Origin: Candidatus Omnitrophota bacterium
Lineage (GTDB): Bacteria; Omnitrophota; Gorgyraeia; Gygaellales; Profunditerraquicolaceae
Length of the DNA stretch: 64,000 nt
Assembly (NCBI GenBank): GCA_026387455.1
Contig: JAPLLR010000043.1
Location: 9,683 to 73,682 of the forward strand
Direction of reading: 5' to 3'
Of this stretch, positions 5,481 to 44,601 are shown in pieces (positions within the stretch are counted from its first letter, which is position 1; each line of letters starts with the position of its first letter). The translations under genes were made by a program, and so were the position numbers. The notes under the pieces are model-generated. The model searched no databases. It was given only the letters and a program-made list of their open reading frames with translations, and had not been told where the DNA came from.

Positions 5481-6271
5481 TCAGTCTTATAGCATTGGCA
5501 GTTTTTTTTACGGTTATTCTTTGTCAGGCCTGTGAGCCTGAGCTCAAGGTGCTTAAGATCGAGCACGGGAGCGCGCAATCATTGTTTGAAGTGGCGAATA
5601 GCTTGAAAAGTGAGCAAGGCAAGGTAAGCTTTGACCAGAACTCCAACAGCCTGATCGTGTTTGATTGTCCGGAGAATATTTTGCGTATTGCCCAGGTGAT
5701 CAAGGGCATAGATATCCGGGAAAAGCAGGTCGAGATCAAAGTCCTGGTCATAGAGGCCAGCGAAAGATTCCTGGAGAATATCGGGGTTAGTTACAGTCAG
5801 GTCATTATCCCTCAGGGAAAGTTTATGGCGATTACGGAGCTGATCAAGGAAAGTAAAGAGGCCAGCACCCGTACTAGCATGATGGTCCGGACTTTGAGTA
5901 ATCGTCCGGCAGTGCTGCAGGTCACTACTGACGAGGTGATCGGTACCGAATTCGTGATATTCAGCAATGGTACGGAGATCACAACACCTGTAAGAGAGCC
6001 GATAGGCAGCATGTTGGAAGTATTGCCTACTGTGAATAACGATGGCTCGATTAATGTGGTCTTAAGGCCAACGGTCAACAGCATGGAGAAGCACGGCACT
6101 CCTTCTGAGAGGTCGATAATAACCCAGGTAGTGCTTAATGACGGAGATACTGTCGCAATAGGTGGAGCTCTGGTCCAAAAGGGGCGCTCCAAGAAAGGGC
6201 TTTTGTCAGGAAAATCCAGCGAGGAGAATAAGAAAGTGGAGATGTTTCTGACCGCTAAAATTGTTGATTAA
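5468..6271 (+). CDS. Minimal secretin-like outer-membrane protein (secretin N domain plus a short secretin core)
   Basis: Signal peptide; an N-domain-like segment (LKVLKIEHGSAQSL...IVFDCPENILRIAQVIKGID), then a secretin-core-like segment (QVEIKVLVIEASERFLENIGVSY...VEMFLTAKIV) that resembles PilQ/GspD C-terminal regions; only 267 aa. Confidence 0.5.
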   Translation: MRRIISLIALAVFFTVILCQACEPELKVLKIEHGSAQSLFEVANSLKSEQGKVSFDQNSNSLIVFDCPENILRIAQVIKGIDIREKQVEIKVLVIEASERFLENIGVSYSQVIIPQGKFMAITELIKESKEASTRTSMMVRTLSNRPAVLQVTTDEVIGTEFVIFSNGTEITTPVREPIGSMLEVLPTVNNDGSINVVLRPTVNSMEKHGTPSERSIITQVVLNDGDTVAIGGALVQKGRSKKGLLSGKSSEENKKVEMFLTAKIVD

Positions 6272-28090: not shown

Positions 28091-28132
28091 GTGAGGGCAC
28101 AATTTATGGAGTCCAATGGATGGGCGACATAA

Positions 28133-28172
28133 GGCCCTTCCTAATTGGATAGGAAGGCCTACCCCTGTGGGG
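28133..28172. repeat. Dispersed short palindromic repeat unit (GGCCCTTCCT...ATAGGAAGGCCTACCCCTGTGGGG)
   Basis: Near-identical to units at 44427-44512; internal hairpins CCTTCC/GGAAGG and CCCC-TGT-GGGG. Confidence 0.6.
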
Positions 28173-31980: not shown

Positions 31981-32415
31981 ATGAATAAGACATACGTTGC
32001 TAAAAAAGGTGATATCAAGAGAGAGTGGTTTATAATTGACGCCAAGGATAAGATTCTGGGCAGGGTTGCGGCAAAAGTCGCGGTAATATTGCGCGGAAAG
32101 CATAAGCCGATATTTAGCCCGCACCTTGATACCGGAGACGGCGTAGTGATCATTAACGCCGCCAAGATTAGGGTAACGGGGCGAAAGATGTCCCAAAAGG
32201 TTTACCGCCGCTATTCGGGTTATCCGGGCGGTCTTCGCGAGGTGACTTTGGAAACTCTTTTGGCCAAAAAGCCAGCGACAGTGATGAGGTTGGCAGTCAG
32301 GCGCATGCTTCCCGGCGGGCCGTTGGGCAGGCAGTTACTTAAAAAATTAAAAATATACGCGGATGATAAGCACCAGCAGATAGCGCAGAATCCGGTAGTT
32401 CTGGAGTTTAAGTAA
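31981..32415 (+). CDS. rplM: 50S ribosomal protein L13
   Basis: MNKTYVAKKGDIKREWFIIDAKDKILGR is a typical L13 N-terminus. Confidence 0.95.
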   Translation: MNKTYVAKKGDIKREWFIIDAKDKILGRVAAKVAVILRGKHKPIFSPHLDTGDGVVIINAAKIRVTGRKMSQKVYRRYSGYPGGLREVTLETLLAKKPATVMRLAVRRMLPGGPLGRQLLKKLKIYADDKHQQIAQNPVVLEFK

Positions 32416-32434: not shown

Positions 32435-32830
32435 ATGGAACAGGCAACAAAATTCTCAGCAATCGGAAGACGTAAAGAATCAGTGGCACGGGTGCAGCTT
32501 TTGCACGGTAAGGGCACTATCACGGTCAATTCTTTGCCTTACAACAAATATTTCTTAAGGGAAACTGACAGGATTATTGTTACGCAGCCTTTGGTATTGA
32601 CCAATACCGGGACCAAGTTTGATGTGGTAGCTAATCTTAACGGTGGTGGTCTTACCGGACAGGCGGGGGCAATTCGTTTGGGGATATCCCGCGCATTGGT
32701 CATGGCTGATTCTGAGCTAAAGGATATTCTGCGTAAGAATGGCTACCTGACCCGCGACCCGCGCGCAAAAGAGCGCAAGAAGTACGGTCAGAAAGGCGCT
32801 CGCAAACGCTTCCAGTGGACGAAACGTTAA
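32435..32830 (+). CDS. rpsI: 30S ribosomal protein S9
   Basis: [10 protein letters not shown]...C-terminal [11 protein letters not shown] is typical of S9. Confidence 0.95.
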
Positions 32831-32873
32831 AGGATAATTAAAGACGTAGCGTCAGAAAAACTAGATTTCGATA

Positions 32874-32906
32874 AAAATCCCGCTGGAAAGAGCGGGATTT
32901 TTTATT
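32874..32906 (+). terminator. Rho-independent terminator after rpsI
   Basis: AAAAATCCCGCT-GGAAAG-AGCGGGATTTTTTATTT, a perfect 8-bp stem plus a T-run. Confidence 0.8.
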
Positions 32907-32933
32907 TGCTGCCTTGATTGAGTATTTGTTTAG

Positions 32934-33226
32934 CGTCTGTCTTGTCCTGTTTCTCGCGGGCTATTGTTTAGCGGGTCCTGCCTTGGCTTGTCCTGCGCGC
33001 GGCTTTTGCCGTGCTCGGATCAAGCCAAGTCACCCGCTAAACCTACCGAGCTAATTTCTTCAACTGGCGGTAGGCTTGGCTTGGTTTTGAGCAGGGCATG
33101 GAAGCCCCGAGCGGGCATGGTTCGCCCGCTATTACATACCAGGCGAGAGCGAGGGGCTGGAAATGAGTGCAGTTTTGCCACGCCGGGGCAAAACAAACGT
33201 CCCTGCGAGAAACAAGACAAGCCGAC
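32934..33226. other. GC-rich (about 58%) highly structured intergenic element, a candidate ncRNA of unknown class
   Basis: Nested long-range complementarities (32936-32960 with 33201-33226; 32972-32984 with 33041-33053; 32990-32999 with 33031-33040) and local hairpins; protein ORFs in it are unconvincing. Confidence 0.4.
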
Positions 33227-33289
33227 CAGCCATGAGATTTGGCGAGACGCTGGATAGCAATATTTAATTAGTATTATCGACGAGAAATT

Positions 33290-33318
33290 ACTTGACTGCC
33301 GACGGATTTTACACTATT
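33290..33318 (+). promoter_or_regulatory. Sigma70-like promoter (TTGACT - 17 nt - TATTAT) for the arg operon
   Basis: Near-consensus hexamers about 30 nt upstream of the argC SD GGAGAAAAT. Confidence 0.55.
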
Positions 33319-33346
33319 ATGAACGATATATCTTAATGGAGAAAAT

Positions 33347-34360
33347 ATGACCATCAATGTAGGAATAATCGGGGCGACGGGGCATACAGGAGAAGAACTG
33401 ATAAGTGTTCTTCTTAAGCATCCTAATGTTCGGATATCAAGGCTCTATAACACAAGTGATGAGCCCCATAAGATTTCAGATGTTTTCCCTCAATTTAAAG
33501 GTCGGTGTGAGCTCGTCTGCTCAAAGCCGGATATGAAGGATATCGCAAATCATTGCGATCTCGTATTCCTGGCTTTGCCGCATACTGTTTCCATGAATTT
33601 CGCGCCCAAGATTCTTAAGCTTGGCAAGAAGGTCATTGACTTGAGCGCAGATTATCGGCTGAAGAACATAAAGGTATTCGAGAAGTTTTATCATGCTAAA
33701 CATAAAGACGCGGCTAACCTTAGGAATGCGGTTTACGGAATACCTGAGCTTTACAGGGCGAATATCAAGAAAGCGAAACTTGTGGCTAATCCGGGGTGTT
33801 ATTCGACTTCAGCGATTCTGGCGCTTGCGCCGTTGGTTGCCCTTGGTTTGATCGATAAGGAATCGATTATTATTGACGCTAAGTCCGGCGTATCTGGCGC
33901 GGGAAAGAAACTTGAGAAGGGGCTGCTGTTTCTAGAGGTGAATGAGGATTTCAGGGCGTATAAAGTAAATACCCATCAGCACATGCCTGAGATAAGCTCT
34001 ATTCTTACTAGGCTTGCGGGTAAAAGTGTCAGCGTTACTTTTGTGCCGCATCTTTTGCCCCTGCAAAAAGGCATCTTGAGCACTATATACGTCAGGAAAA
34101 TTGGCAGGACGCAGAATCTGGCTAACCTTTACAAGAAGTTCTACAAGAATGAGCCTTTTGTGCGGATAAAGAAAGAAGGGGAGTTTCCCAGGCTCAAGGA
34201 TGTTGTGGGCACGAATTTCTGTGATATCGGGATCAAGGAAGACACAAAGAGCGTGATAGTGATCTCTGCGATCGACAACCTATTGAAAGGCGCCTCGGGT
34301 CAGGCTGTACAGAACATGAATATCATGTATAAGTTCCCTGAGACCACAGCGTTGCTGTAA
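33347..34360 (+). CDS. argC: N-acetyl-gamma-glutamyl-phosphate reductase
   Basis: VGIIGATGHTGEELISVL NAD-binding N-terminus and catalytic Cys in NPGCYSTSAILAL. Confidence 0.95.
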   Translation: MTINVGIIGATGHTGEELISVLLKHPNVRISRLYNTSDEPHKISDVFPQFKGRCELVCSKPDMKDIANHCDLVFLALPHTVSMNFAPKILKLGKKVIDLSADYRLKNIKVFEKFYHAKHKDAANLRNAVYGIPELYRANIKKAKLVANPGCYSTSAILALAPLVALGLIDKESIIIDAKSGVSGAGKKLEKGLLFLEVNEDFRAYKVNTHQHMPEISSILTRLAGKSVSVTFVPHLLPLQKGILSTIYVRKIGRTQNLANLYKKFYKNEPFVRIKKEGEFPRLKDVVGTNFCDIGIKEDTKSVIVISAIDNLLKGASGQAVQNMNIMYKFPETTALL

Positions 34361-38466: not shown

Positions 38467-38841
38467 ATGAAAAAAAGTTTTACATTGGTGGAATGTATCC
38501 TTGTGTTGGTCATAGTCATCATTATCATGGCTGCTTTTATGCCTGTTTTTAGCAAGGCAAAAGAAAGGAATCTAGACAGAGAGGCTTCTGTGTATTTAAA
38601 AATGTTGCAACAGGCGGAAAAGACCCGTAAATTAGAATCGGGAACTTATTATGGAGACCAATCAGACACCGCTACTATTAACAGTAATCTTAGGATTATG
38701 TTGCCTACAATAGCGTCTAATTGGAATTATACTGTTAAATCTACGGGCTGTGTTCAGGCGGTTAGAAACGGCGGCGATGCCCGGTCATGGAATCTGATTA
38801 TAACTAATAACGCTGCACCCGCTTCTGGGCTTTGTCCATAA
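38467..38841 (+). CDS. Type IV pilin-like protein (N-terminal methylation-motif domain) embedded in the arg operon
   Basis: MKKSFTLVECILVLVIVIIIMA: class III signal with F+1 and E+5 but Ser rather than Gly at -1; SD GGGAGGA upstream; C-terminal Cys pair. Confidence 0.65.
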   Translation: MKKSFTLVECILVLVIVIIIMAAFMPVFSKAKERNLDREASVYLKMLQQAEKTRKLESGTYYGDQSDTATINSNLRIMLPTIASNWNYTVKSTGCVQAVRNGGDARSWNLIITNNAAPASGLCP

Positions 38842-40032: not shown

Positions 40033-40109
40033 ATGTCACGGGACAGACTCCGTCAAAGCTATAACTTTCAGCACATAGGAGCCCTGTCCCGACCATATAG
40101 GAGAATTTA

Positions 40110-44412: not shown

Positions 44413-44601
44413 ACACCTGGCTTTAGCCCCTTCCTTAGTCCCTTCCTTAAAAGGTATAGGAAGGACTACCCCTGTGGGGTTAAAAGGTATAGGAAGGGCT
44501 ACCTCTCTGGGGTTATAGGATAAGCCAGTGTTCCGTCCTAAAAAGGACGCACCCAGCATACCTTTTAGCTGGGGTGCAGCTTTTTGCGCAAGGAGAGTTA
44601 G
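44413..44601 (+). promoter_or_regulatory. dapB leader: third copy of the conserved leader motif, split by an inserted tandem REP-like repeat
   Basis: ACACCTGGCTTT (44413-44424) and AAGCCAGTGTTCCG (44522-44535) match the two arms of hairpin 1 of the carB/lemA leader; 44425-44521 between them carries the repeat units. Confidence 0.5.
44427..44512. repeat. Two tandem units of the dispersed palindromic repeat (AAAAGGTATAGGAAGGnCTACCyCTsTGGGG)
   Basis: Direct tandem duplication, related to 28133-28172. Confidence 0.6.

Follow-up and report, generated by a model that had tools for sequence, protein, structure and literature searches.

The window analysed here, a stretch of 64,000 nucleotides (nt) from Candidatus Omnitrophota contig JAPLLR010000043.1, contains the genes rplM and rpsI followed by argC, and the spacer between rpsI and argC is occupied by a GC-rich, heavily base-paired element. 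The original prediction for this element was a single novel structured RNA of about 300 nt. We found that it is indeed a conserved structured element with no counterpart in Rfam, but that the unit had been misjudged: instead of one 300-nt unit, the region combines three pieces that all belong to one repeat family of ~175 nt, designated family A. One piece is a full copy, the second is an arms-only copy that runs in the opposite orientation, and the third is an orphan arm (Table 1). The GC content was 0.575 for positions 33000-33199 and 0.458 (45.8%) for the window, where 58% and 44% had been noted, and the element lies, as described, between the rpsI terminator and the arg promoter. Upon folding of positions 32925-33260, the plus strand reached -161 kcal/mol (z-score of -6.9) and the minus strand -153.5 kcal/mol (z-score of -7.2), with 0 of 100 dinucleotide shuffles as stable in either case, which agrees with the heavy pairing that had been predicted. 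Both open reading frames (ORFs) reported for the region, 32964-33257 on the plus strand and 33020-33220 on the minus strand, were also present.

The Rfam 15 database, whose classes include RNase P, transfer-messenger RNA (tmRNA), signal recognition particle (SRP) RNA, 6S RNA, riboswitches, group I and II introns, HEARO and ribozymes, was searched with the whole window at the gathering score, and no match was obtained. The same was true for 11 related loci that carry family A together with two further modules, B and C, described below. At E-values of up to 10 over positions 32800-33360, nothing significant was found; all matches but one fell on the rpsI terminator, and the single match inside the element was to PhotoRC-I (33094-33107, 10 bits, E-value of 9.8). 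The original prediction had recognized no RNase P, tmRNA or SRP signature and had named an Rfam hit as a possible refuter; the window, the region and the 11 related loci matched no known family.

A covariance model of family A, R1, was built from an 11-sequence alignment and spans 179 positions; its E-values are rough, as the calibration was short. Scores in Table 1 refer to this model. We found no further family-A copy in the window outside positions 32926-33238 with blastn and the covariance model. The full copy aligned with units of 10 relatives, and the arms-only copy was 95% identical to positions 5486-5568 of the closest related locus, L003 (related loci are denoted by L-numbers). The orphan arm is a direct repeat of the neighbouring arm, and no such arm was present at the same position in L003.

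Table 1. Features of the rplM-argC region of the window, with their positions and properties.
Feature	Positions	Strand	Properties
rplM	31981-32415		
rpsI	32435-32830		
Intrinsic terminator of rplM-rpsI	32873-32902	+	Strong; 12-bp stem and T run; left boundary of the insert-prone spacer
Orphan arm	32926-32962	-	Reverse-oriented family-A 3' arm (TTTAGCG-TCTGTCTTGTCCTGTTTCTCGC); outer end of a truncated A(-) copy
Arms-only family-A copy	32965-33046	-	Closing stem and small loop, without core; R1 51.1 bits, E-value 1.7e-10
Linker hairpin CTACCG...CGGTAGG	33043-33074	+	Minimum-free-energy structure; 3' half is the start of the full copy's 5' arm
Full family-A copy	33058-33238	+	R1 159.6 bits, E-value 7.6e-38, model positions 1-179
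Core hairpin GTTTTGCC-ACGCCGG-GGCAAAAC	33172-33194	+	Stem covaries, loop conserved
arg promoter region	33278-33320	+	CGACGAGAAA motif, then TTGACT-17-TATTAT (33292-33320); right boundary; promoter scan 10/12 matches
argC	start at 33347		

This composition accounts for the helices of the original prediction. The long-range helix exists (32941-32960 with 33202-33221, 20 nt, 90% complementary), but it is one of two competing pairings. Its 5' strand is the orphan arm and its partner is the 3' arm of the full copy, which pairs at -36.0 kcal/mol with the orphan arm and at -40.7 kcal/mol with its own 5' arm (33060-33098). The pairing with its own arm is the one conserved across family A, and the long-range helix arises because an orphan arm was left beside the full copy. 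The two inner helices had been placed 6-10 nt away from the actual pairs, which join 32966-32976 to 33032-33042 (perfect over 11 nt) and 32982-32990 to 33021-33029, whereas the local hairpin was present only 2 nt from where it had been described. As a side observation, the Logan assembly of SRR20698647 encodes RpsI and ArgC proteins identical to those of the window, and its DNA is identical where compared. This assembly breaks on both sides of the element core, with L001 ending at about window position 32989 and L002 starting at about 33207, which is consistent with a repeat or strain variation at this site.

Relatives were collected by scanning the species genomes of the Genome Taxonomy Database (GTDB) with ArgC, which yielded 80 loci; most were labelled Candidatus Omnitrophota or Omnitrophica, and many of the others "uncultured Planctomycetales". 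L003 was the top match with an ArgC identity of 94%, and the remaining loci showed 50-72%. In 65 of the 80 loci rpsI and argC are adjacent, and the spacer length is bimodal: 37 spacers measure 83-234 nt, and therefore have no room for a 175-nt copy, while 28 measure 265-1379 nt. The inserts in the long spacers lie between the conserved terminator and the conserved promoter block and represent GC-rich palindromes of several families that look unrelated, with either orientation occurring. In particular, the terminator hairpin is kept after rpsI in the relatives, and the promoter block TCCGACGAGAAAAA.CCTTGAC is kept in nearly all of them, whether an insert is present or not. Both nhmmer and blastn linked window positions 33054-33229 to the spacers of L003, L081, L051, L032, L007, L031 and L057, to that of L009 in reverse, and to a site in L023 that is not an rpsI-argC spacer; L013 was added by reading its spacer. 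Family A occurs in both orientations in this spacer (L009, L013, L051), and in several relatives the two eroded ends of a copy remain at the same place by the arg promoter. Absence of the region and of covariation from relatives had been named beforehand as grounds for abandoning the element; homologous sequence with strong covariation was present.

Two side observations concern these spacers. A diverged family-A copy (L057 4767-4906, 72.8 bits) is located in a 1379-nt spacer with rpsI...argC synteny on a contig of 58% GC that is labelled Deltaproteobacteria; this copy represents either mis-binning or an occurrence outside typical Omnitrophota. The motif (TC)CGACGAGAAA(AA), at window positions 33278-33297 directly 5' of the arg -35 hexamer, was found at the same position in nearly all of the loci L003-L082, and may be an operator or an UP-like element of the arg operon.

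Family A is not restricted to this spacer and has no tie to rpsI or arg: many unrelated genes flank its copies, which occur in both orientations. In the 873 kb surrounding the argC genes of the relatives, R1 identified 15 full copies and about 9 short ones. A pattern derived from the conserved core matched 11 known copies and then at least 120 metagenome stretches of the Joint Genome Institute (JGI), in which R1 found at least about 100 further full copies (~72 and ~28). The total exceeds 110 full copies in relatives and metagenomes, with unit lengths of 163-211 nt, typically ~175 nt, and with up to three full copies close together (three in 13 kb in L031, three in 6 kb in L088). A tRNA-like origin of the first hairpin had been suspected from weak 75-80-nt nhmmer matches and was rejected, as R1 shows arms-only family-A copies there.

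We compared orthologous spacers and found three states, empty, short form and full form, in the argF-argG spacer and in the spacer between a leuB-like gene and asd. Family A is present in the leuB-like|asd spacer of L013, L023 and L031; the argF-argG spacer contains the full form in L031 and the short form in L027 and L029, and the arms-only short form occupies both spacers in many relatives. Copies were also found 3' of argG in L052, L069 and L081. Typically, a family-A copy is located between co-directional genes, 0-30 nt past a stop codon and with 7-45 nt left to the next start; relative to these genes, 16 copies are in sense and 23 in antisense orientation. ORFs in the loci of the relatives were called crudely; the 111 flanking ORFs matched 147 Pfam families (RuvB, QueH, Asd/ArgC, cyclase, S9, UvrD and others) and represent housekeeping genes. 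Clustering and a Pfam scan of these ORFs revealed no recurrent neighbouring protein, and the 25 commonest Pfam families included no transposase, integrase or reverse transcriptase, and in particular no Y1 (HUH) transposase, RAYT, TnpA or TnpB. Additionally, no family-A match was obtained in IMG/VR (pattern scan), PLSDB plasmids or INPHARED phages.

The fold of family A is maintained by compensatory changes. RNAalifold applied to a 12-sequence alignment (A1) yielded 36 pairs, 23 of them with compensatory changes. In an 83-row model alignment, 93.2% of the cells held standard pairs, compared with 31-45% when the partners were slid by 1-3 columns; 30 of 36 pairs had changed on both sides, and double-change cells numbered 400 against 94 +/- 9 in shuffles. 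This alignment was fitted to R1 and hence favours it, and an independent MAFFT alignment agrees. The closing stem is long, with regularly spaced G.A mismatches (GGCUU GGCUU opposite CAAGA CAAGA) and a tandem GA (CGAG opposite CGAG), and is followed by an inner helix of GCAGGG with CCCUGC. The core contains the invariant motifs AGCGGGCA.GG, GAGCGA and AGCG and a hairpin with a covarying 8-bp stem and the conserved loop ACGCYGG; in this hairpin, 7 of 9 pairs had changed on both sides and 97% of the cells were paired, and an independent column scan found 6 of 8 pairs covarying. G.U and A.C pairs were counted at 200:59 on an RNAalifold structure, but this excess vanished on the 36 pairs of R1 (13:13 and 16:14), sense and antisense copies being equal. 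Only the G.A mismatch is robustly strand-specific, with 31 A.G against 1 C.U in each orientation class. The data fit RNA, single-stranded DNA and a cruciform alike as the selected form.

The ends of family A, TTTAGCGGGTGGCTTGG... and ...CAAGACAGGACCCGCTAAA, pair over ~30 nt and covary rather than being constant. Complementarity runs 4 bp past GCGGG/CCCGC, and these 4 bp covary as well (TTTA/TAAA, TTTT/AAAA, GCCA/TGGC). Repeats of 2 nt flank 32% of the copies, compared with 18% in controls, an excess that arises because the TA in the TTTA/TAAA ends is palindromic. The left flanks are AT-rich, with no constant tetranucleotide beside the left end. Two candidate explanations of the ends were rejected. 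A MITE (a miniature transposable element with inverted repeats) of the IS630/mariner type, with TA duplication, does not suit the copies, as TA/TA is present in only 32% and the others, with TTTT/AAAA, GCCA/TGGC and the like, display the covarying helix extension. An inverted duplication of the flank, striking at leuB-like|asd, is not general beyond 4 bp (5.02 matches compared with 4.56 +/- 0.22).

We also compared the tempo of change in family A with that of its surroundings. Paralogues within one stretch share a mean identity of 77%, compared with 70% between stretches, and a copy usually has its nearest relative on a different contig. At the same site, the copies of L007 and L031 are 85% identical, whereas the fourfold sites of argC and rpsI are 44% and 59% identical; for L081 and L051 the corresponding values are 83% and 42-44%. 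Between the window and L003, identity is 83-86% at fourfold sites and 95% in the short copy, but only 75% in the full copy; the nearest relatives of the window's full copy lie in unrelated contexts (L126 and L186 at 83%, L174 at 81%). L003 contains an extra 3' arm and does not have the orphan arm of the window. In family A, deep conservation is thus accompanied by local replacement, rearrangement and erosion.

In some relatives family A is accompanied by the two other modules. Module B is a rod-like hairpin of ~175 nt, and module C is ~210 nt in length, with B sometimes nested between the arms of C; the folds of both covary and neither is in Rfam. Examples of B or C before A are L087 9957-10314, L141 5134-5493, L174 10977-11377 and L129 1649-2043. 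Of the 31 B copies, 28 were found upstream of A in the same orientation, as was every one of the 15 C hits. Most lie within 80 nt, and none is downstream of A or inverted nearby; the window contains neither module. Nine loci contain B or C, then 470-900 nt at a GC content of 29-38% with a single ORF of 119-240 amino acids (aa), then A. L130 is an exception, in which the longest ORF between the modules has only 90 aa and the GC content is 45%. ORF-containing loci are L156 237-1058, L162 482-1385, L131 10430-11202, L185 538-1266, L190 331-894, L098, L178 and L135. The bracketed ORFs show no relationship from one locus to the next, and either orientation occurs. In searches with Pfam and PADLOC most had no Pfam match; two gave weak matches (Trypsin_2, Trypco2), and PDC-S45 was a further weak hint. 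In one ORF family, that of L190, B precedes the ORF in three different neighbourhoods (L190, L206 and L207). At L208 2206-3457, A(-), an ORF and A(+) are inserted between folD and metF, and this ORF is homologous to another bracketed ORF. These AT-rich ORFs look like the cargo of a cassette or composite element. The B, C and ORF loci were selected through A, and the association is one-sided.

Further homologues of the bracketed ORFs without A or B adjoin tRNA genes, a restriction-modification (R-M) system or IS3. As side observations, tRNA-like genes, judged by eye, are located directly 5' of the homologues of one ORF family (L210 2372-2445 and L212 ~2455-2500), and in L213 an ORF homologue adjoins a GIY-YIG gene and an IS3-type transposase; such settings are typical of variable regions.

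Elsewhere in the window, a 124-aa ORF whose N-terminus (MKKSFTLVECILVLVIV...) resembles that of a type IV pilin is present at 38467-38841 between argF and argG. Similar ORFs are present in the argF-argG spacers of L014, L037, L062 and L068, and in other relatives argF and argG overlap or have a hairpin repeat between them. Other small GC-rich palindromic repeats are located at 28132-28172, 44430-44510, 44537-44580 and 40039-40091. They include a palindromic repeat CCTTCC..GGAAGG followed by CTACCCCTGTGGGG, with three copies, a repeat GTCCTAAAAAGGAC-GCACCCAGC..GCTGGGGTGC, of which tandem copies are also present in L005 5610-5860, and a CGGGACAG..CTGTCCCG hairpin between argG and argH that is related to GGGACTGTCCC hairpins in many relatives.

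Family A is apparently an undescribed multi-copy, structure-conserved, non-coding repeat that is specific to Omnitrophota and has no match in Rfam; the searchable literature yielded no description of Omnitrophota repeats or non-coding RNAs. Its multi-copy membership, its fold with compensatory changes, its dispersal among spacers in both orientations and the filled and empty states of orthologous sites were observed directly. We consider it probable that the rpsI-argC region is a cluster of a dispersed hairpin-forming repeat that is non-autonomous and mobile or recombining, of the kind represented by MITEs, ERIC elements (enterobacterial repetitive intergenic consensus) and bcr1. Family A would accordingly be, or have been, a non-autonomous mobile or recombining element, and its maintenance would require intrastrand pairing from end to end, in a cruciform or a folded single strand, rather than terminal repeats in double-stranded form to which a classical DDE transposase binds. 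Three observations suggest this reading: covariation includes the final 4 bp, target duplications were not detected, and accessory ORFs are bracketed by module pairs. The cluster in the window would be partly rearranged and would lie in an untranscribed or weakly transcribed gap from the rpsI terminator to the arg promoter, where it has most likely nothing specific to do for rpsI or arg and is a passenger.

Several results weigh against such a mobile repeat. None of 60 copies with clear borders (0%) has a direct repeat of 3, 4 or 5 nt that would mark a target-site duplication, a feature by which MITEs are defined. No autonomous element with family-A ends was seen in ~1.5 Mb of related loci, and no mobilising gene, transposase or other, was found near family A among the 25 commonest flanking families. 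The paralogues are old, with no sign of a recent burst. The slower-than-silent change at the same site in distant relatives fits purifying selection on a functional element as well as it does horizontal spread, and the conserved unpaired motifs and the conserved G.A mismatch suggest more than a passive palindrome. The compensatory changes themselves are open to another origin, as template switching in DNA palindromes could also yield them without selection.

Alternatively, family A could be a functional structured RNA of the host, present in paralogous copies and acting as mRNA punctuation (stability, processing or insulation), as a trans-acting small RNA, or as a self-cleaving or self-excising RNA, with the window containing one functional copy and debris. 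We regard this as rather unlikely, although the strong covariation, the invariant unpaired motifs and hairpin loop, the deep same-site copies that change far more slowly than fourfold sites, the old paralogues that are still 93% paired and the location of most copies inside operons, where they would be transcribed, all accord with it. A host RNA would not be expected to occur in near-random orientation (16 sense, 23 antisense), nor with equal non-Watson-Crick content in both orientation classes, where G.U and A.C do not change places. Most copies lie directly against the upstream stop codon and leave no room for a promoter of their own; a promoter scan found no promoter-like site before the full copy of the window. 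Additionally, no terminator-like T run follows the element, many lineages have eroded, arms-only or no copies, and the window copy lies outside any predicted transcript. It is extremely improbable that the element has a regulatory role for this one locus, whether as a cis-acting arg-operon leader of riboswitch, attenuator or T-box-like type or as a 3' element of rpsI. Only the position directly upstream of argC, with A(+) or a relic there in many relatives, would suit such a role; the rpsI terminator precedes the element and the conserved arg promoter follows it, the 37 short spacers among 65 cannot contain it, it is also found between RuvB, QueH, asd, folD and numerous further genes, and this very spacer has it in both orientations. 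We give equally little credence to chance GC-rich palindromes or a small protein gene. Although a 97-aa ORF (32964-33257) spans the region, the z-scores are about -7, the homologues are set apart by paired substitutions and by indels of any length rather than codon-wise, and a reading frame cannot be kept by copies in both orientations and arms-only forms.

The polar arrangement of the modules raises another explanation, in which A, B and C are folded-DNA recombination sites or transposon ends of a cassette system by which small accessory ORFs would be brought into operon spacers, analogous to integron attC sites, the ends of IS200/IS605 elements or palindrome-associated transposable elements (PATEs), and MITE-flanked mobilisation units; the window would then represent an "empty" inverted pair. 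The order of the modules, with 28 of 31 B and all 15 C copies upstream of A in the same orientation, the nine loci with one unrelated AT-rich ORF between B or C and A, the recurrence of one ORF family after B in L190, L206 and L207, the A(-)-ORF-A(+) insertion inside the folD-metF cluster of L208, and covariation to the very ends with no target duplication are all as such a system would predict. We nevertheless judge it very unlikely, as the 25 commonest flanking families included no recombinase or HUH transposase, the ends lack the integron core sites RYYYAAC and GTTRRRY, and there are no cassette arrays and no constant tetranucleotide by the left end. Moreover, other homologues of the cargo ORFs lie beside tRNA genes, an R-M system or IS3 without A or B, and the statistics are one-sided through the selection of loci by A. 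A bolder proposal, which we regard as decidedly doubtful, is that A, B and C together are the folded single-stranded (DNA or RNA) ends of an unrecognized polar class of mobile element that is restricted to Omnitrophota, makes no target duplication and inserts itself, along with small AT-rich accessory, defence-like ORFs, precisely between the genes of housekeeping operons, or else that family A is a 175-nt self-excising or self-cleaving "intergenic intron" RNA. Self-excision would explain the tolerated operon insertions, the pairing to the last base pair and a core that changes more slowly than silent sites. If true, B/C-to-A mobilisation around accessory ORFs would represent a new means of bringing small genes into operons, and a self-excising unit would be a new class of ribozyme or intron.

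Omnitrophota is an uncultivated phylum, for which family A provides a covariance model and a consensus fold of a widespread element that otherwise invites erroneous annotation as a novel RNA gene, as happened here, and that marks hot spots of DNA gain and loss in operon spacers. The element in the window should not be annotated as an arg regulator or a housekeeping RNA. The puzzle posed by family A is that its covariation is strong and its rates of change are sub-silent, yet its orientation is random and it has neither a target duplication nor a partner protein.

We compared family A with known systems. It departs from the MITE, ERIC, bcr1 and repetitive extragenic palindrome (REP) kind in its lack of target duplication, covarying termini, invariant branched core and old paralogues, as well as in its polar association with other modules and the bracketing of accessory ORFs. 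The attC sites of integrons are conserved in structure more than in sequence, contain conserved mismatches, and span 57-141 nt with the core sites RYYYAAC...GTTRRRY. Family A resembles them in its imperfect palindromes with conserved mismatches beside small accessory ORFs, but by inspection its ends, TTAGCGGG...CCCGCTAA, are not RYYYAAC...GTTRRRY; moreover, it is 175 nt in length and occurs at single loci, with no arrays and no integrase seen. REPs and their derivatives (bacterial interspersed mosaic elements (BIMEs) and the REPIN-RAYT system), together with the PATEs of IS200/IS605, share with family A the GC-rich palindromes in AT-richer spacers, the mosaic clusters of modules, the absence of target duplication and, probably, a dependence on a folded single strand, and PATEs are also polar, with unlike ends. 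In contrast, REPs measure 20-40 nt compared with ~175 nt, and family A has no RAYT, TnpA or TnpB among the 25 commonest flanking families and no constant tetranucleotide at its left border.

Similarity was also evident to the MITEs Correia, RUP and Nezha, which are shorter than 200 bp, encode no transposase, have inverted-repeat ends and a long stem-loop, and are present in many copies. Family A is likewise small and non-coding, with terminal inverted repeats and dispersed copies that show insertion polymorphism, and the MITE-flanked units known around integrons (IMU; PMC3184786) are similar to L208, where two copies bracket and apparently carry a passenger gene. Unlike MITEs, family A has no target-site duplication, covarying instead of conserved termini, no known cognate insertion sequence, and old paralogues (77% identity) in place of recent near-identical bursts. 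The features of ERIC follow PMC3184786 and, reportedly, Wilson & Sharp 2006. ERIC (also named IRU), an imperfect palindrome of ~127 bp, is similar to family A in being non-coding, intergenic within transcription units and in either orientation, in occupying a given spacer in some related species and not in others while being highly conserved across genera, and in forming a long stem-loop. The two share no sequence similarity and occur in different phyla, and family A exceeds ERIC in length and has both a branched core and invariant unpaired motifs; descriptions of ERIC-type elements include target duplications and a TA at each terminus, whereas TA/TA is found in only 32% of family-A copies, with no longer repeat. 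The bcr1 element of the Bacillus cereus group (~155 bp, one of the "Group A" repeats) is non-autonomous and dispersed, with a cruciform-like fold kept by compensatory changes; its genomic distribution is not conserved between relatives, its structural stability has been lost several times, and it is known to be transcribed (PMC3184786). Each bcr1 copy is flanked by direct repeats of 5 bp, which family A does not have, and the two are unrelated in sequence. Family A nevertheless shares with bcr1 the combination of a compensatory fold, a variable distribution and eroded copies.

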